Positions 2,417-32,493 of a stretch of DNA of 33,569 nucleotides are shown here, piece after piece. Origin of the DNA: a virus. Lineage: Duplodnaviria; Heunggongvirae; Uroviricota; Caudoviricetes. Made by a program: the position numbers and the translations under genes. The number at the start of each line of letters is the position of its first letter. Position 1 is the first letter of the stretch. Under the pieces are notes generated by a model that was not told where the DNA came from, searched no databases, and saw only the letters and a list, made by a program, of their open reading frames with translations. The DNA lies in IMG/VR virus record IMGVR_UViG_3300045988_135277, positions 1 to 33,569 of that record. The stretch is one strand, 5' to 3'.

Positions 2417-3106
2417 CTACCCATGCTTCCTATACGTCTGCGGCATGCTTCCAATGACTTTCCCGAAGATAAACACCCGGTTCATCTCGTCTTTCTCGAT
2501 CGGGTCCCACGGTGAGTAGCTCTTGTTATCAGAGATGACCAGCAGCTTATCCTTCATCATTTGCAGGCGCTTTACATGGGCTGTGTCGTCGTACAGAAAC
2601 GCATAGATACCATCACCGTCGAAAGATTTAACTGTGATATCAACGAACAGCAGATCACCAGGTTCGATCGTTCCTGACATGCTGTCACCACGCACGTTAA
2701 TGATGCGGATATTTTCCGCCTTCCTACCATCGAACATGTGACGAGCATCGTCAAACGAGTACTCAACCGAGCGTAGAACTTCTACAAACTCACGGTTGAT
2801 GACTCCCGGCCCGGCACTGACTTCTATATCAAGAACGTCAATTTTGAAGTATTTGGAATGGCTGACAGTTGATTGTATTGGTTGCACTGTACTGTCTGAC
2901 ATATTTCCAACGCCAGAAGATAACCATTCTGCGCGCACACCCAAAGCGTTCGCGATCTCCACGATTTTAGTTGTTTGGTTAGCTTTCCCTGTTTCGATTT
3001 TCTGAATAGCAGCCTGGCTAACCCCGACCAAATCCCCAAGCGCCTTTTGTGTAAGGCCTCGCGCTAATCTGGCTTCTTTAAGTCTTTCTGAGAGTGTTGT
3101 TTTCAT
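2417..3106 (-). CDS. cI: CI-type prophage repressor (N-terminal HTH, C-terminal LexA/S24-like autocleavage domain)
   Basis: N-terminal HTH motif (LTQKALGDLVGVSQAAIQKIETGK), C-terminal GDSM serine and downstream Lys typical of S24 peptidase fold; divergent to cro across an operator-bearing intergenic region. Confidence 0.92.
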   Translation of the reverse strand: MKTTLSERLKEARLARGLTQKALGDLVGVSQAAIQKIETGKANQTTKIVEIANALGVRAEWLSSGVGNMSDSTVQPIQSTVSHSKYFKIDVLDIEVSAGPGVINREFVEVLRSVEYSFDDARHMFDGRKAENIRIINVRGDSMSGTIEPGDLLFVDITVKSFDGDGIYAFLYDDTAHVKRLQMMKDKLLVISDNKSYSPWDPIEKDEMNRVFIFGKVIGSMPQTYRKHG

Positions 3107-4050: not shown

Positions 4051-5066
4051 CAGGTTCGGAAATGGCGAAAGCCGGTCTGCGCGAACAGAACCGACTTTCA
4101 GGTGCAAATCGTAACACACTCATTGCGGGAGGAATTATGGCAAACACTGCTGAGATATTCAATTTTCCAGTGCCGGATGTGGCACAAAAGGAGCCGCGCG
4201 TGGCAGATCTCGATGATGGTTATACGCGCATTGCAAATGAGTTGCTGGAAGCTGTGATGCTGGCCGGATTAACACAGCACCAGCTTCTGGTCTTCCTGGC
4301 TGTCATGCGCAAAACATATGGCTTTAATAAAAAACTGGATTGGGTGAGCAACGAGCAACTTTCCGAGTTGACCGGGATATTGCCGCACAAGTGTTCTGCT
4401 GCAAAAAGTGTTCTGGTAAAGCGTGGGATTCTTATTCAGAGCGGGCGGAATATCGGCATCAATAATGTGGTCAGTGAATGGTCAACATTACCCGAATCAG
4501 GTAAGAAAAATAAAGTTTACCTGAAAGAGGTAAATTTACCTGAATCAGGTAAGAAAAGTTTACCCAAATCAGGTAAAGGCACTTACCCGAATCAGGTAAA
4601 CACAAAAGACAAACTAACAAAAGACAATATAAAACCTTATTCGTCCGAGAATTCTGGCGAATCCTCTGACCTGCCAGAAAACGACCTTCCTGTGGTGAAA
4701 GCGGATGCTGCGATTCAGAGCGGCAGAAAGTGGGGGACAGCAGAAGACCTGACCGCCGCAGAGTGGATGTTTGACATGGTGAAGACCATCGCGCCATCAG
4801 CCAGAAAACCGAATTTTGCAGGGTGGGCTAACGATATCCGTCTGATGCGTGAACGTGATGGACGTAACCACCGCGACATGTGTGTACTGTTCCGCTGGGC
4901 CTGCCAGGACAACTTCTGGTCCGGTAACGTGCTGAGTCCGGCCAAACTCCGCGACAAGTGGACCCAGCTCGAAATCAACCGGAACAAGCAACAGGCTGGC
5001 GTGACAGTCGGCAAACCAAAACTCGACCTGACAAACACTGACTGGATTTACGGGGTGGATCTATGA
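4047..5066 (+). CDS. O: replication initiator O-like protein (iteron-binding N-domain, lambda-type C-terminal region)
   Basis: Contains internal iterons (ori) as lambda O does; immediately upstream of and overlapping lambda P; N-terminal region has O-like motif LLxxxLxxxQxxVLLAxxRKTYGxNK. Confidence 0.9.
   Translation: MTGSEMAKAGLREQNRLSGANRNTLIAGGIMANTAEIFNFPVPDVAQKEPRVADLDDGYTRIANELLEAVMLAGLTQHQLLVFLAVMRKTYGFNKKLDWVSNEQLSELTGILPHKCSAAKSVLVKRGILIQSGRNIGINNVVSEWSTLPESGKKNKVYLKEVNLPESGKKSLPKSGKGTYPNQVNTKDKLTKDNIKPYSSENSGESSDLPENDLPVVKADAAIQSGRKWGTAEDLTAAEWMFDMVKTIAPSARKPNFAGWANDIRLMRERDGRNHRDMCVLFRWACQDNFWSGNVLSPAKLRDKWTQLEINRNKQQAGVTVGKPKLDLTNTDWIYGVDL
4489..4600 (+). repeat. ori: five ~19-bp iterons TTACC(C/T)(G/A)AATCAGGTAA(G/A) inside O, followed by AT-rich stretch 4601-4650
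   Basis: Direct repeats at 4489-4506, 4516-4534 (degenerate), 4535-4553, 4558-4577, 4582-4600, each internally palindromic (TTACC...GGTAA), ~22-23 bp apart; encode repeated PESGK peptide in O. Confidence 0.75.
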
Positions 5067-5764
5067 AAAACATCGCCGCACAGATGGTTAACTTTGACCG
5101 TGAGCAGATGCGTCGGATCGCCAACAACATGCCGGAACAGTATGACGAAAAGCCACAGGTACAGCAGGTAGCGCAGATCATCAACGGTGTGTTCAGCCAG
5201 TTACTGGCAACTTTCCCGGCGAGCCTGGCTAATCGTGAGCAGAACGAACTGAACGAAATCCGCCGCCAGTGGGTTCTGGCTTTCCGGGAAAACGGGATCA
5301 CCACGATGGAACAGGTTAACGCAGGAATGCGCGTAGCCCGTCGGCAGAATCGACCATTCCTGCCATCCCCGGGACAGTTTGTAGCCTGGTGCCGGGAAGA
5401 AGCATCCGTTATTGCCGGACTACCAAACACCAGCGAGCTGGTTGATATGGTTTACGAGTATTGCCGGAAGCGTGGCCTGTATCCAGATGCAGAGTCTTAT
5501 CCGTGGAAATCAAACGCGCACTACTGGCTGGTTACCAACCTGTACCAGAACATGCGGGCCAATGCGCTTACTGATGCGGAATTACGGCGCAAGGCTGCCG
5601 ATGAACTGGCCTGTATGACCGCGCGAATTAACCGTGGTGAGGCGATACCTGAACCAGTAAAACAACTTCCTGTCACGGGCGGTAGACCTCTAAATCGTGC
5701 ACAGGCTTTGGCGAAGATCGCAGAAATCAAAGCTAAGTTCGGACTGAAAGGAGCAAGTGTATGA
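5063..5764 (+). CDS. P: replication protein P (DnaB helicase loader), lambda-type
   Basis: 233-aa protein recognised as near-identical to lambda P from memory (MKNIAAQMVNFDREQMRRIANNMPEQYDEK...). Confidence 0.95.
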   Translation: MKNIAAQMVNFDREQMRRIANNMPEQYDEKPQVQQVAQIINGVFSQLLATFPASLANREQNELNEIRRQWVLAFRENGITTMEQVNAGMRVARRQNRPFLPSPGQFVAWCREEASVIAGLPNTSELVDMVYEYCRKRGLYPDAESYPWKSNAHYWLVTNLYQNMRANALTDAELRRKAADELACMTARINRGEAIPEPVKQLPVTGGRPLNRAQALAKIAEIKAKFGLKGASV

Positions 5765-6063
5765 CGGGCAAAGAGGCAATTATTTATTACCTGGGGACGT
5801 ATAAGAGCTTCTGTGCGCAGGACGTTGCCGCGGTAACAGGCGCTACAGTAACCAGCATAAATCAGGCTGCGGCTAAAATGGCGCGGGCAGGAATCTTGGT
5901 CATTGATGGTAAGGTCTGGCGAACGGTGTATTACCGCTTCGCTACCAGGGAAGAACGGGAAGGAAAGGTGAGCACGAATCTGATTTTCAAGGAGTGTCGC
6001 CAGAGTGCCGCGATGAAACGAGTGTTGGCAGTGTATGGAGATATGAACTTAAACTTGCTGTGA
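5761..6063 (+). CDS. ren: Ren-like protein (Rex exclusion escape)
   Basis: N-terminal ~90 aa recognised as lambda Ren-like (MTGKEAIIYYLGT...VWRTVYYRFATREERE); overlaps P stop as in lambda. Confidence 0.85.
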   Translation: MTGKEAIIYYLGTYKSFCAQDVAAVTGATVTSINQAAAKMARAGILVIDGKVWRTVYYRFATREEREGKVSTNLIFKECRQSAAMKRVLAVYGDMNLNLL

Positions 6064-6311
6064 CGGTTTTCATCGGTAACACACCATGTAATCTAGCAGT
6101 CAGCTTAGAAATAGGAGCGGCAGTTAAAGATTTTTCAGTTAGTAGAAAATTACTGTTATTGCAGGGATCTAATCACCGGAGAGTCGTTCCATTTGTCTTA
6201 TGATTACCTGATGTCCGTTAGTTCGTTGGTAATCACCGTTTTTGTTAGAGAAGTAAGCATCGCTGACAAAATATTCTCAACGATGCCTGCTTTATTGCCA
6301 CTACAAATTAA

Positions 6312-7814
6312 TTAAATTGCATCTGCAAACTCTGGGGTTTTTCGCTCAGGTATAATTGATGAGTTGTTGTTGTCACTTTTTTTATTTTCATGATTACGAA
6401 TAGCCAATGACTCATTAAAGTCTTTTGCGACTGCTGTCTCAATAAATTCAATTTCTGAATCAGAGTGTTTTTTAAGAGCTTCTTTGATCTCATCCAGAGT
6501 AACATAGAAAAACTCTTTTCTACGATTTACAAGATTGACTCTCTTTTTATCGAAGACATCATGTAGTTTTTTTTCTAATGATGGAGCGTCCTCCGAATAA
6601 ATCATAGCATGCACATCAAAAATAAATGGAACAGATGCATCACCGAGCTCATTTACACGGTCTTGCGGATCAAGACGTCGTGTCATGCCTATTTTATAAA
6701 CATTCTCCCCAAAAGAACCTATGTTCGAAATAATATAAACATGACCTTGTTTGGTTTGTTGTGCCATGGATAATGCTCTTTGATGCTTTGATTCAGCCTG
6801 CGACAAACTCTGTTCTAGTTCGGCAATGCGATTTTCGAGGCGTTGCTTCATGTCACCAGTAACTTTTTCCATTTCCTTTCTTGCAGCTTCAATTGCTTTT
6901 TTATAACGGCGCTCTTCTGCCTCTGCGTCTTGCATGGCCTTTTCTATTTCTCGTTGTGCACGCTCCTCCTCTCTCATTTGTGCCCTTATTTCTGCCTGTT
7001 CTTCTTTTTCTTTCTGTTTTTGCTCACGATATTCATGGGTAAGCCACAATTCCTCAAGTTTTTTATTGAGGTATTTAGTGTTTATATATATGTGATTTTG
7101 CTCGTTTAGTTTATTTATGGCCTCAAATGCCTTTGTGATGCGTTCTTCCATTTTAGTGATATTTTTCCACGTGCAATTGCTAATTGCAGCATCACATTCA
7201 TTATTAAATGCTCTAGTAGTTAACCTGATATTTCTGTCTGTCATTTTTTTACCCTCTGCTCGAGAGCCTTCAACAGTCCATTGGGTTGTACAATATACTG
7301 CGCCAGAGTGGGTTTTATCCCGCAGCATTAATTTCTGTTCATCCCTGATGGATTTTATTTTGTTTTTAAATTGCTCTGAATCTTCAAAATTAAAATGAGG
7401 TTCGTAAAATCCTAGCTCGGCTAGCTCAACATCTTCTGAATAAATAGAAATTTGCCTTACTAGTTTATCATATATTTCTTTCTTCTCTTTATAAGTTCTT
7501 CTTAGCTCTTGGATTTGTTTATTGATACCATCCATTTTTTCAATGGTGTTTGTTAGTTCATTATTGGCATTTTCTTTTGCTTTTTGGGATTCTTCTTTTA
7601 TTATGGAGCATTCTTGCTCTGTTTTCTCAATAAGCTTCTTACATTCTTCTTCTACATTAAAATAATCTGCAAAGCGAGATTTGTATTCTTCATTTTTTTG
7701 ATTGCTATCACTTAATTCTAATTGTATTTTTTTGATGCGTTTGATTGCAGCTATATAAAGAACAAGAACAACCAATAAAAATATGATTGCAAGTAATAGT
7801 GGAGTTTGAGTCAT
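6312..7814 (-). CDS. membrane-anchored coiled-coil protein with C-terminal T5orf172 (GIY-YIG-like) domain, 500 aa (DUF4041-like architecture)
   Basis: N-terminal TM helix (LLLAIIFLLVVLVLYIAAI), ~300 aa K/E-rich heptad-like region, C-terminal motif GHVYIISN...YKIGMTRR...PF...LH..F...R...EFF matching T5orf172 consensus; antisense, AT-rich, flanked by ~250 and ~425 bp noncoding DNA. Confidence 0.9.
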   Translation of the reverse strand: MTQTPLLLAIIFLLVVLVLYIAAIKRIKKIQLELSDSNQKNEEYKSRFADYFNVEEECKKLIEKTEQECSIIKEESQKAKENANNELTNTIEKMDGINKQIQELRRTYKEKKEIYDKLVRQISIYSEDVELAELGFYEPHFNFEDSEQFKNKIKSIRDEQKLMLRDKTHSGAVYCTTQWTVEGSRAEGKKMTDRNIRLTTRAFNNECDAAISNCTWKNITKMEERITKAFEAINKLNEQNHIYINTKYLNKKLEELWLTHEYREQKQKEKEEQAEIRAQMREEERAQREIEKAMQDAEAEERRYKKAIEAARKEMEKVTGDMKQRLENRIAELEQSLSQAESKHQRALSMAQQTKQGHVYIISNIGSFGENVYKIGMTRRLDPQDRVNELGDASVPFIFDVHAMIYSEDAPSLEKKLHDVFDKKRVNLVNRRKEFFYVTLDEIKEALKKHSDSEIEFIETAVAKDFNESLAIRNHENKKSDNNNSSIIPERKTPEFADAI

Positions 7815-8239
7815 TCGTGCTATTCCTTACGGACAATTTAAGACGTTTTTATTAAATCCTGTTCAATGTGTATGCGGGTGATTGCCACCGCTTACAATCT
7901 TCATAATTATCAGTTAGATAGACTCTCTAGTAAATAATTTCATTTTTTGCAATATTCTTGTTTAATATTTCAATTTATGAAATGAACTCTTTATCCTTTC
8001 AAGGCGAAAGGTTTCTTCTTCGGAAATATTTGCTCTCGTGTGACGTATAAAGACCTTTGATTTTCAAAAATCAGTAGGGAATAATATAGTTACTGTCGGC
8101 CTGAACACCCGGTGGTGGGGTTGCGCTAAACGGGGACGTTTATGCGCACATACAATCCAAACTCTCTTCTCCCTTCACAGATGCAGAAATGCACCTGCAA
8201 TTCTTTGCATCTAGCGTTTGACCTCTGCGGAGGTGAAGC

Positions 8240-8695
8240 GTGAACCTCCCACAAGACGGTATCAAATTGCATCGCGGTAACTTCACCGCTATCGGTCAGC
8301 AGATCCAGCCTTATCTGGAGGACGGAAAATGCTTTCGCATGGTGCTTAAACCGTGGCGCGAGAGACGCAGTCTTTCCCAGAATGCACTCAGCCACATGTG
8401 GTACAGCGAAATCAGCGAGTACCTCATCAGCAGGGGGAAAACGTTCGCTACTGCAGTATGGGTAAAAGATGCACTCAAACACACTTATCTCGGTTATGAA
8501 ACCAAAGAACTGGTTGATGTCGTAACCGGTGAAATCACCACCATTCAGTCATTACGTCATACCTCCGATCTCGATACCGGAGAGATGTATGTCTTCCTGT
8601 GTAAGGTTGAAGCCTGGGCGATGAATATTGGCTGCCACCTGACTATTCCGCAGAGCTGCGAGTTCCAGCTGCTGCGCGACAAGCAGGAGGCGTAA
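8240..8695 (+). CDS. NinB/YbcN-like protein (151 aa)
   Basis: GTG start with GGAGG RBS; motif [15 protein letters not shown] resembling the NinB family; gene order ybcN-ninE-ybcO-rusA-ylcG as in DLP12. Confidence 0.8.
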
Positions 8696-11420: not shown

Positions 11421-11796
11421 GCTGACTATCTCTGCTTTCTTCTTTACTGTTATTGGCTCTTTCATCTGGTCAGCGAATCACTACTACAGCAAATATCAGC
11501 ACGAAAAGAAACGTGCTGATGAGGCTGTACAAAATGCCAAATCGGCAACTGCCATTACCAATAACGTCCTGCAATCACTGCAAATCGTCAATACAGTACT
11601 GGAGGCTAACCAGCATGCAAAACAGCAGATCGCACTGGAGTCACAGAGAACCCAGGAAGATATCAAAATGGCTGTTGCGGATGATGATTGTGCTTCACGT
11701 GCTGTGCCTGCTGCCGCTGCTGACCGGTTGCGGAAGTACGCGGACAGTTTACGTGAGCGTTCCGGTGGCACCACTGCCACCCAGCCTGACTTCTGA
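11404..11796 (+). CDS. Rz-like inner-membrane spanin (i-spanin)
   Basis: N-terminal TM helix, coiled-coil periplasmic region; overlaps R stop; contains embedded +1 frame lipoprotein ORF. Confidence 0.8.
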   Translation: MKLSYKLTISAFFFTVIGSFIWSANHYYSKYQHEKKRADEAVQNAKSATAITNNVLQSLQIVNTVLEANQHAKQQIALESQRTQEDIKMAVADDDCASRAVPAAAADRLRKYADSLRERSGGTTATQPDF

Positions 11797-11938
11797 TACT
11801 CCTGTACCGTTTATACCTAATCCGCTGACGTATGGTGCCAGTCTGGAGCTGAATGTGAGTCTGTTGTCTGCGCTGGCTAACTGCAATCGGGATAAAGCTG
11901 ATATTCGTAAAATAGATGCAGAGAGAACTAACCATTAA
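11681..11938 (+). CDS. Rz1-like outer-membrane lipoprotein spanin (o-spanin)
   Basis: Starts inside Rz in another frame; signal peptide plus lipobox LLTGC; proline-rich mature region; extends past Rz stop. Confidence 0.7.
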   Translation: MMIVLHVLCLLPLLTGCGSTRTVYVSVPVAPLPPSLTSDTPVPFIPNPLTYGASLELNVSLLSALANCNRDKADIRKIDAERTNH

Positions 11939-11959
11939 GCAATAAAATTGTCAAATTAA

Positions 11960-12586
11960 TCAGTTGTCAAATGAATATACGTTAAAGGTATATGTCGACA
12001 TAATTTCACCAAGTACCTCAATACATACACTTTTTTTATGAAAATTACTGGGAAATGAACTTAGCTCCTCAAGACATTGCACATAAGTGCTGATATCACT
12101 TGCATCACGTTCAAGGAATTTCACTTGACCAAAAGAAGGAGTTTTAATCTTGGTTCTTTGCTGGATTATATGGATAAAGTGTGTAGTTGGTGAAACTATT
12201 ACTCTTGAAATATCGGAAATGATGTCTTCTTGAACTTGCCGATAAAGTAAATCCTTTGGGTAATGGTGTTTTATCTCGATGGTTGCAACATTGCCATTAT
12301 GTTCAGACGTTAATATCGACTGGTTATAAAGTGATATGTCAACAGCGCCGATACCGAGTTTTGGATGCTCACTTAAAGCAGTTAGTGTGCTGATTTGATT
12401 GAGTATAACAACTAACTCATCACGTATTTGTGTTTCATGTTTGCGATTGTAGAAGTAGCCATTCAGTTCATTTAACTTTTTATGCATCCTATCGTGACTA
12501 ATTGCTTCGATCAGTAAATCCTGAATCATACTTTTCTCTAGGTAATCCGAACGGTTGTAAGTGACAGTATTGTGCTGGCATGTCAT
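11960..12586 (-). CDS. hypothetical protein (208 aa; likely start at 12529)
   Basis: ORF track; antisense to the flanking lysis and packaging genes; AT-rich; purine-rich RBS before internal Met at 12529. Confidence 0.7.
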   Translation of the reverse strand: MTCQHNTVTYNRSDYLEKSMIQDLLIEAISHDRMHKKLNELNGYFYNRKHETQIRDELVVILNQISTLTALSEHPKLGIGAVDISLYNQSILTSEHNGNVATIEIKHHYPKDLLYRQVQEDIISDISRVIVSPTTHFIHIIQQRTKIKTPSFGQVKFLERDASDISTYVQCLEELSSFPSNFHKKSVCIEVLGEIMSTYTFNVYSFDN

Positions 12587-12629
12587 TAATATGTAAAGGT
12601 ATTGTGAATGCCAGAAAGATAACGAAGTA

Positions 12630-12983
12630 TCATCGATAGAAAAACTTTACAGCCCACTCGTAAACAGCTTTGTAAATCGGTTCATGGTAAATACTATCGA
12701 TACTATTCAGATGTGCGATCATCGCCTCCACAGTTGTAGTGGTTGTTTCTAATATTTCGATTATTGCAGGGCGGTCATCATCTTCATCGAAGTATTCGAA
12801 CAGCAGTACAGGTTTACCATGCAATTCAGCATCTGAGACTCTAAGGTTACAACTACCGCTCAACTCAAAGTGAATTTTGTAATTACCTTCTACAGAATGG
12901 CCTACGGGGAAAAAGTATAGGGTGTCATCTTTGTTCAAAAGCCATTCCCATTCATAACTATTCATTTGTGAACTCCTGTTCAT
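12630..12983 (-). CDS. hypothetical acidic protein (117 aa; likely start at 12965)
   Basis: ORF track; AGGAG RBS before the Met at 12965; upstream partner of 11960..12586 on the same strand. Confidence 0.65.
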   Translation of the reverse strand: MNRSSQMNSYEWEWLLNKDDTLYFFPVGHSVEGNYKIHFELSGSCNLRVSDAELHGKPVLLFEYFDEDDDRPAIIEILETTTTTVEAMIAHLNSIDSIYHEPIYKAVYEWAVKFFYR

Positions 12984-13115
12984 TGAGTTTCAACAACTAT
13001 CAACTACATCCAGCGAAGCATAAAAGATCGTTTATGGCAAAACCGGAATGGAGTGCGATTCGATTCTGAGAAGGGTGCCACGTATCGTACGCGAACCATC
13101 CAAGAGGATTATGCA

Positions 13116-13466
13116 ATGCCCCTACGAACCCCAAAAGCCTGCCGCGTTCGCGGCTGCCGTAATACCACTACAGACCCGTCAGGCTACTGCGAAAGCCACA
13201 AAAACGAAGGCTGGAAACAATACAAGCCGGGGCAATCTCGTCATCAGCGCGGTTATGGTTCGAAGTGGGATGTTATCCGCGCGCGTGTGCTGAAGCGTGA
13301 CAAAGGTTTATGTCAATTATGTCTGCATGCTGGTGTGGTGGGTGAGGCGAAAACCGTTGACCACATCATTCCCAAAGCGCATGGCGGCACCGATGCCGAC
13401 AGTAACCTGCAGAGTCTGTGCTGGCCGTGTCATAAGGCGAAGACGGCCCGTGAACGGCTGAAGTAA
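13116..13466 (+). CDS. HNH endonuclease (packaging-associated)
   Basis: ATG at 13116 with AAGAGGA RBS; motif CQLC...VDHIIPKAHGGTD..NLQSLCWPCH; adjacent to terminase genes. Confidence 0.85.
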   Translation: MPLRTPKACRVRGCRNTTTDPSGYCESHKNEGWKQYKPGQSRHQRGYGSKWDVIRARVLKRDKGLCQLCLHAGVVGEAKTVDHIIPKAHGGTDADSNLQSLCWPCHKAKTARERLK

Positions 13467-31938: not shown

Positions 31939-32493
31939 TTAACAGTTAATCCACCAGTATGTGCCGGGTGCCTGCGGGTAAGTGGCGGCGGCAACCTCGT
32001 GAACCATCCCCCAATCCAGAGCTGTAGAGGCATTGGCTATGGTGGCGGCGGAGATAACCTCCTTCCACTCATTGCGGCTCTTACTGAGCTCAATCTGACT
32101 CTCCAAAATATCGACAAAACGCTCCAGGTCATTATTGAGACACGCGCTCCACTCACTGACGCGTGAGTGATCCACGCTTGGGCCCATCAAGCCCCAGTGA
32201 AAAGGATGCAGTAAGAACCGACTCCCAGGATTCGCCTTACGTTCAGACCCTGCAAGAAAAATGATATTAGCGACTGATTCAACATTGCTAAGGTTATGGG
32301 TCTTTACTGGGATTGGTAGGGCCTTTAGAAAGTGATAAGCAGTAAAACCTGCAACGAGGTCACCGCCCGGACTGGAAATGTAAATGTTTAACTCAGTCGC
32401 CCCCTGATTGATAGCTCCAAGGCAATTGCTAATTAAAGCGTTAACGGTGGACTGATTTACGGGCACCGTGAAATTTATAGTATGCAGCATCAC
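31939..32493 (-). CDS. ClpP-fold (S14-like) serine peptidase family protein, 184 aa
   Basis: Strong AAGGAG RBS; alignable by eye to ClpP core: NIYISSPGGDLVAGFTAYHFLK vs ClpP [23 protein letters not shown]; Ser in ...VESVANIIFLAG at the ClpP catalytic-Ser register; His in LLHPF vs MIHQP. Confidence 0.7.
   Translation of the reverse strand: MMLHTINFTVPVNQSTVNALISNCLGAINQGATELNIYISSPGGDLVAGFTAYHFLKALPIPVKTHNLSNVESVANIIFLAGSERKANPGSRFLLHPFHWGLMGPSVDHSRVSEWSACLNNDLERFVDILESQIELSKSRNEWKEVISAATIANASTALDWGMVHEVAAATYPQAPGTYWWINC

Follow-up and report, generated by a model that had tools for sequence, protein, structure and literature searches.

The DNA stretch analyzed here (33,569 nucleotides, positions 1 to 33,569 of IMG/VR virus record IMGVR_UViG_3300045988_135277, the whole of which is referred to as the window) is an Escherichia coli prophage related to Shigella phage SfV, and between its lysis and packaging genes lies a small AT-rich island with two minus-strand genes, termed A and B. 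The favored explanation, which is given roughly even odds, is that A and B are two independent single-gene morons stacked in a variable slot and probably expressed by the lysogen, B being a candidate anti-phage nuclease. The small nuclease family predicted for B is new, and the place that B and the small protein A occupy is a known, recognized prophage cargo slot. The surrounding prophage has a lambdoid early region with a Q antiterminator, from which the gene order runs onward through holin/endolysin/Rz/Rz1, HNH and P27-type terminase genes to an HK97-type head and a contractile Mu-like tail, and it also encodes RusA and HNH nucleases.

The two minus-strand open reading frames (ORFs) that the original prediction placed at 11960..12586 (208 aa) and 12630..12983 (117 aa) were found again at the same coordinates, and in the orientation it gave, convergent with Rz/Rz1 (ending at 11938) and divergent from the genes on the packaging side. 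Beyond 13115 in the 3' direction are the HNH endonuclease gene (annotated start 13116), a P27-family small terminase gene and the large terminase gene. The AT-richness of the region is equally apparent, with a GC content of 0.372 for 11908-13115 compared with 0.511 for the rest of the window (0.393 in gene A and 0.353 in gene B); taken in 300-nt segments, the GC content dips to 0.32-0.41 inside the island compared with ~0.48-0.59 on each side. In blastn comparisons with empty sites the homology stops at 11907 and restarts at 13116, giving an island of 1,208 bp in place of ~72 bp of the empty Rz1-HNH junction of phage SfV and strain ETEC1718, in both of which the annotations leave 26 bp from the Rz1 end to the HNH start codon. 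These limits are close to the 11939-13115 proposed earlier. A scan of 11700-13400, including the 21-bp gap between Rz1 and B and the region between A and B, gave no terminator-like site or hairpin, and scans of the island for Rfam families and repeats gave no Rfam match and no notable repeats, and thus no RNA antitoxin and no transposon ends.

The ORF lengths quoted above are correct as maximal frames; the true genes are shorter, 111 aa for A and 189 aa for B, because RefSeq (the annotation of the identical E. coli locus), the PHROG profiles and the homologues from other genera all begin at internal Met codons. An AGGAG ribosome-binding site lies 8 nt upstream of the A start, and the 43-bp separation first reported becomes 100 bp between the corrected gene models. 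The A and B families are each conserved across several Enterobacterales genera, and among E. coli alleles A has a ratio of nonsynonymous to synonymous polymorphism (pN/pS) of 0.17 and B one of 0.155, the full-length alleles having no internal stop. Both genes are under purifying selection, and the cross-genus families, low pN/pS and absence of internal stops mean that A and B are genuine genes and not chance ORFs.

The two genes had been proposed to form a two-component module, toxin-antitoxin-like or an obligate anti-phage pair, and this does not survive a co-occurrence check, in which 108 loci gathered from genomes, viral contigs and assemblies were each searched for both proteins: the pair is not conserved together in other genomes. 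Adjacent A and B are present only in copies at least 94% identical, which make up one E. coli cassette lineage with a constant spacing of 104 nt between the aligned coding sequences. Diverged A genes (51-74% identity; Escherichia sp., Serratia and metagenomic lambdoid phages) are accompanied by B at 0 of ~20 loci, and diverged B genes (50-71% identity; Enterobacter, Citrobacter, Yersinia, Klebsiella, Proteus and Providencia) by A at 0 of ~35. Separation is also seen among close copies. At loci L076 and L077 an intact B, 96% identical, is present without A, and L076 retains ~30 nt of the A 3' end, indicating that A was replaced there and B left intact; in NZ_CP053787.1 A is frameshifted by a 1-nt indel and unannotated, with B intact alongside. 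The reverse condition, B broken and A intact, occurs in several genomes through insertion of an IS3-family insertion sequence (IS) at codon 38 or truncation after ~aa 106 or ~aa 118. B alone is always convergent with Rz/Rz1 and has a varying upstream neighbor, which may be lacking (L016, L099), an unrelated 77-aa protein (L003), a 103-aa secreted protein (L017) or divergent genes (L015, L076, L098). A alone, found in lambdoid phages of Escherichia, Serratia and metagenomes, lies ~68 bp from and divergent to a Terminase_2-type small terminase gene (terS). The terS start CCAGTCCGGTTTTGCCAT (cassette strand) abuts both the A-only and the B-only cassettes, and an intact divergent Terminase_2 terS begins there. 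In the window the neighbor is HNH, and an 11-codon 5' remnant of a foreign small terminase gene persists at the outer edge of the A cassette and, by comparison with the A-only and B-only loci, is a recombination scar. Short foreign terS 5' remnants of MTKPDW/MAKPDW type were also observed to travel with the B cassette (L003 ~7920-7960, L002/L095 ~7900, L015 ~5950), persisting even beside another gene or a different terminase, and such scars trace cassette movement. Given the shared terS start and the remnant retained in the window, it is simplest to regard A and B as alternative occupants of a single slot that would have been stacked by recombination in the E. coli lineage.

An obligate A-B module, in which acidic A would neutralize nuclease B in a toxin-antitoxin-like manner or the two proteins would act as one anti-phage system, is compatible with the arrangement of the genes, which share a strand and are separated by 100 bp that contain no terminator; antitoxin and immunity systems, moreover, commonly have a small acidic protein encoded ahead of a nuclease. 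It can also draw on the near-constant co-occurrence in complete E. coli genomes (A in 79, B in 80 and the full island in 73 of 5,426) and on the disruption of B in several genomes when A is never lost alone by truncation. Set against this are the complete separation of A and B at the diverged loci, the intact B genes with A missing or frameshifted, and the absent, unrelated or divergent upstream neighbors of B-only loci. A has no DNA-binding or known antitoxin domain in Pfam or NCBIfam, the 100-bp gap holds a promoter-like site, and PADLOC matches neither protein. As A and B are not together outside one cassette lineage the pair reading is rejected as improbable, and on the comparison of loci the two genes are independent of each other. 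Adjacency within one clonal cassette is not to be equated with functional coupling.

The AlphaFold model of B, built on 21 homologues, is confident, with a predicted local distance difference test score (pLDDT) of 85.5 and a predicted template modeling score (pTM) of 0.86. The core of the model comprises helix 29-46, strands 50-53, 65-68 and 80-89, helix 97-107 and strand 117-127, a predicted restriction-endonuclease-like α-β-β-β-α-β topology. Among 37 B relatives, extending to ~20% identity, the only invariant columns are Lys-30, Glu-32, Asp-64, Glu-85 and Lys-87, which are invariant in the close B family too. Asp-64 opens strand β2 of the model and the Glu-85-x-Lys-87 motif is within strand β3, the canonical catalytic arrangement of PD-(D/E)xK enzymes, and the metal-binding/catalytic residues would be Glu-32, Asp-64, Glu-85 and Lys-87. 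Seven sub-threshold Pfam matches of B relatives fall in HSDR_N (two; 22.2 bits with a cut-off of 25.1, and E 0.018), PDDEXK_4 (two; E 0.0012 and 0.013), PDDEXK_9 (E 0.022), DUF234 (E 0.017) and DpnII-MboI (E 0.046), and all those for which coordinates were retrieved span the motif region. Distant B relatives also give weak PADLOC matches to Shedu SduA (E 1e-5) and REase_II, reported without coordinates. From the model and the conserved motif, B probably has the PD-(D/E)xK nuclease fold. The protein has no signal peptide, lipobox (first 40 residues) or membrane segment, with a maximum 19-residue hydropathy of 0.97.

The B family is rare, with 48 proteins at E<=1e-3 in a profile search of 1.84 billion cluster representatives. 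PHROGs places both A and B in function-unknown families only, PADLOC-DB v2.0 (2023) gives 0 families for either at E up to 1, and neither the accessions nor the PHROG identifiers of A and B were found in the literature, nor are they in the DefensePredictor supplements. Alignment of the B profile with hhalign shows no relation to LmuA or to a DUF2779 protein. No methyltransferase adjoins B, either in the window or at the other B loci examined, and neither a methyltransferase nor another constant partner accompanies B or its distant relatives, the latter being single genes in a variety of mobile or defence-like settings. The most distant relative examined (P0053, in L117 384-5983) is directly after a DUF2779 gene and near genes for a large AAA ATPase and a WYL-domain regulator, a neighborhood that looks like a defence island. 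The Gifsy protein GiPD474 is an ATPase and unrelated.

Protein A is acidic, as originally stated, with an isoelectric point of 4.56, and contains a conserved LLFEY-x-DEDDD patch. The members of its family are found only in Enterobacterales and are all hypothetical proteins, and A has no detectable relatives of known function and no Pfam/NCBIfam domain. The AlphaFold2 model is poor (pLDDT 59.7), and no signal peptide, lipobox or transmembrane segment is present (maximum 19-residue hydropathy 0.95). Most likely A is a further accessory factor, separate from B, that the lysogen expresses. The alternative that had been allowed for in the original prediction, a lipoprotein of Bor type or a structural or lysis protein, is excluded for both A and B by the family searches and the lipobox and hydropathy analysis.

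The suggestion that the lysis-to-packaging junction is a moron site is borne out by empty and variously filled sibling junctions. The slot that is empty in SfV and ETEC1718 holds in FRIK1989 (O157) an antisense iss gene (L114 2182-2475) encoding a bor-type serum-survival lipoprotein, which confirms that it is the classic bor site. In strain L65 it contains a DUF6979 gene with a small ORF, in UTI89 a 74-aa ORF, in L076 B with a divergent 151-aa ORF where A would be, and in a second prophage copy in L025 a sense-strand gene of 168 aa. In Proteus phages the slot is occupied by a complete Lamassu system (LmuA E 4e-148, LmuB E 5e-237) adjoining and divergent from the B homologue. The HNH-TerS module itself is present in 1,101 of the 5,426 complete E. 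coli genomes, the island in only ~75-80. The tai gene of phi80, likewise antisense, has the equivalent place ahead of the packaging module, which PMC11364771 describes as a common location for such genes. The Rz1-to-HNH/terS junction of SfV/HK97-like and lambdoid prophages thus has unrelated antisense cassettes (iss/bor, Lamassu, A, B) swapped in and out and even stacked. The low GC content, hotspot location and antisense orientation, together with PD-Lambda-1, a known defence protein encoded in the other large low-GC antisense island of the window (5926-8300), and the position of B beside Lamassu, suggest that the island is accessory, probably defensive, cargo.

Since A and B both run antisense to the Q-dependent late operon, no known lytic promoter can express them, and it follows that they need promoters of their own. 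A weak sigma-70-like site (TTTACA-17 nt-CACAAT at 12597..12569, with 9/12 consensus matches) lies between the two genes, and this promoter-like element is kept in L076, where A is absent and B intact. A perfect TATAAT upstream of B in other lineages was considered as a B promoter and dropped, since it sits in the spacer between the Shine-Dalgarno sequence and the ATG of the divergent terS. With no terminator between B and Rz1, antiterminated late transcripts must cross B and A in the antisense direction to reach the HNH, terminase and structural genes, and after induction this antisense late transcription would, by analogy, silence A and B; silencing by late transcription was shown by experiment for phi80 tai (PMC11364771). 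We infer that A and B are expressed in the lysogen and silenced by late transcription, and that B is active as a nuclease against phages. In the proposed mechanism B would be a PD-(D/E)xK endonuclease, small, cytoplasmic and stand-alone, that the lysogen produces and that cuts superinfecting phage DNA; a defence role for B is credited with a chance somewhat short of even. As B has no dedicated methyltransferase or immunity partner it must distinguish self from non-self in another way, possibly by DNA modification state or structure, or through activation on infection.

Comparison with known systems places the island close in architecture to the phi80 taiEcA/atiEcA "non-contiguous operon" (Tai, the tail-assembly-inhibition defence; PMC11364771), which is likewise antisense, lysogen-expressed prophage cargo interrupting the Q-dependent late operon, lysogen expression being presumed for A and B. 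The island shares with Tai/Ati an antisense gene interrupting the late operon upstream of packaging, and TaiEcA (204 aa) is near B in size. The likeness is one of architecture only: the B and A profiles aligned by hhalign with phi80 orf63, orf64 and orf65 give probabilities <1%, tblastn of A and B in a phage collection including phi80 gives no match, and no counter-defence gene is encoded on the sense strand of the island. A nuclease fold and motif of the kind predicted for B are not reported for Tai in the part of PMC11364771 consulted. The chemistry predicted for B resembles that of Type II-like PD-(D/E)xK enzymes and of single-gene defence nucleases. With Type II PD-(D/E)xK endonucleases (R.SwaI 5tgq, BglI, EcoRV) B has 14-15% identity, and differs in having no cognate methyltransferase and in reaching no curated threshold. 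Lambda bor, the classic lysogenic-conversion moron, and E. coli iss occupy the same slot in the same antisense orientation as A and B, whereas A and B are cytoplasmic, without signal peptide, lipobox or hydrophobic segment, and have no sequence relation to them. Shedu SduA/DUF4263, the HsdR N-terminal domain and the Cap4-type LmuA of Lamassu have in common with B the PD-(D/E)xK domain (predicted in B) and carriage in mobile elements or defence hotspots, but B, at 189 aa, lacks a sensor, ATPase or N-terminal regulatory domain and has no PADLOC match of its own. On these comparisons A and B belong to none of the toxin-antitoxin, restriction-modification, Tai/Ati, Bor/Iss and PADLOC v2 systems.

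Three further explanations bear on what B does and on when the genes are used. B may be an orphan Type II-like or modification-dependent Type IV-like restriction enzyme, with methylation supplied by a prophage methyltransferase or by host Dam/Dcm, and its best structural neighbors are Type II enzymes (SwaI, BglI, EcoRV, NlaIV, MspI, NgoMIV and SfiI), in keeping with the weak DpnII-MboI and REase_II matches. The close B family is confined to Enterobacterales, which are Dam-positive, and DNA methyltransferases are encoded ahead of the lysis cassette in sibling prophages. However, the window has no methyltransferase gene between Q and holin, and none is within 6-8 kb of B at the Enterobacter, Providencia and Proteus loci or beside the distant relatives; this explanation is allowed only a small chance. 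A free-standing homing-type endonuclease, a selfish gene spreading among co-infecting or resident phages by cutting the empty lysis-terS junction, would account for the constant junction of B, always convergent with Rz/Rz1 although the terminases and lysis genes of the phages are unrelated, and for the conserved terS 5' fragment carried with it in several lineages, which resembles flank co-conversion; PD-(D/E)xK homing endonucleases do exist. It is nevertheless very improbable. The flanks vary between lineages (HNH, Terminase_2 or lambda-type GpA terminase, with different Rz types), leaving no common target sequence for homing, and occupancy is low, ~7% of the E. coli prophages that have this HNH-TerS module. 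B moreover runs against lytic transcription and is present in none of the sequenced phage isolates searched, and the unrelated non-nuclease cargo (iss/bor, Lamassu) found in the slot identifies a general hotspot. A role of A and/or B in the lytic cycle, such as host DNA degradation, help in recombination or packaging, or anti-defence, is suggested by the closeness of the lysis and packaging genes; small acidic proteins of phages frequently act as DNA mimics against restriction, and accessory nucleases are common in phages. The antisense orientation to the Q-driven late operon speaks against such a role, as do the absence of A and B from most sibling prophages, SfV and the phage isolates, the RusA and HNH nucleases already possessed by the phage, and the low GC content and hotspot location typical of morons, and it is considered unlikely.

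Several results count against stacked, lysogen-expressed morons with B as an anti-phage nuclease. Pfam, NCBIfam and PADLOC-DB v2.0 (2023) contain no model that B matches at threshold, a Foldseek search of B against the PDB returns nothing significant (best E 0.06), and sequence and profile searches of the PDB with queries A1, A2, A3, P0084 and P0056 give nothing meaningful. A and B are absent from 50,697 phage isolates (megablast of the island; tblastn of A and B). In a consensus scan promoter-like sites in the island are no commoner than in shuffled sequence, and the AT-rich DNA may be silenced by H-NS. The repeated inactivation of B could mean that B is costly or dispensable, or could only reflect the attraction of IS elements to AT-rich DNA. 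Within E. coli A and B are nearly always together, and a recently acquired functional link between them may exist there.

Coordinates of the island, its genes and sites, and the related features in the window and in other loci
Feature	Position	Strand	Basis or remarks
Low-GC cargo island	11908..13115	.	blastn against empty sites and GC content
Gap between the convergent Rz1 and B stops, 21 bp	11939..11959	.	ORF coordinates
Gene B, 189 aa, WP_000613842.1, phrog_12494; predicted stand-alone PD-(D/E)xK nuclease	11960..12529	-	
Putative active-site codons of B (span 12269..12442)	Lys-30 12442-12440; Glu-32 12436-12434; Asp-64 12340-12338; Glu-85 12277-12275; Lys-87 12271-12269	-	
Spacer between A and B (100 bp), which may carry a promoter of B alone	12530..12629	-	weak sigma-70-like site
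Gene A, 111 aa, WP_001089763.1, phrog_14397; small acidic cytoplasmic protein	12630..12965	-	start is Met-7 of the long ORF
Foreign small-terminase 5' remnant, ATG GCA AAA CCG GAA TGG... (MAKPEWSAIRF*, 11 codons)	13034..13066	+	comparison with A-only and B-only loci
PD-Lambda-1, 500 aa, full-length, early-right region	6312-7814	-	PADLOC E ~1e-197; Pfam DUF4041 and T5orf172/MUG113
Lamassu genes in Proteus phage contigs	L098 4501-5610; L101 2823-4562 / 4614-5723		
Broken-B loci	L025-L027 (= L106-L108) ~6550-7750; L041 ~6790; E. coli hits H90-H94		

Other accessory genes were observed elsewhere in the window and in the related contigs. The lowest-GC stretch of the window (~0.30-0.35) is 501-2600, where minus-strand ORFs at 805-1707 and 1898-2356 encode a 300-aa DUF6414 protein and a 152-aa protein without a family, beside a cI-like repressor gene (2417-3106); the two may form a further pair of accessory or defence cargo genes in the immunity region. 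An antisense gene for a 184-aa ClpP-family protease (31939-32493, minus strand), located beyond the tail genes on their downstream side, is unusual for a prophage protease gene in both position and orientation. In a Providencia prophage with B (L002 14820-16491) adjacent HEPN-domain and GmrSD_N-domain proteins in the early region are probably another defence pair, and in an A-carrying phage contig (L013 667-1131) a Tad2-like (anti-Thoeris) protein is encoded among the head genes.

A bolder proposal, held tentatively and judged rather unlikely, is that B is the founding member of a new and rare family of anti-phage nucleases, minimal in size (~190 aa) and encoded by single genes, that have no cognate methyltransferase, sensor or immunity protein, with A an independent novel lysogen factor. 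Such enzymes would spare host and prophage DNA in an unusual way, for instance through the Dam/Dcm methylation of the host, a specificity for modified phage DNA or action only on injected or replicating DNA ends. Should B prove inactive or irrelevant, the island would be ordinary prophage mosaic cargo. The junction is in itself useful for mining further cargo. If B does protect lysogens, a very small single-protein nuclease would be added to the prophage-borne defences, and with it would come the question of how a partnerless restriction-like enzyme spares its own host.

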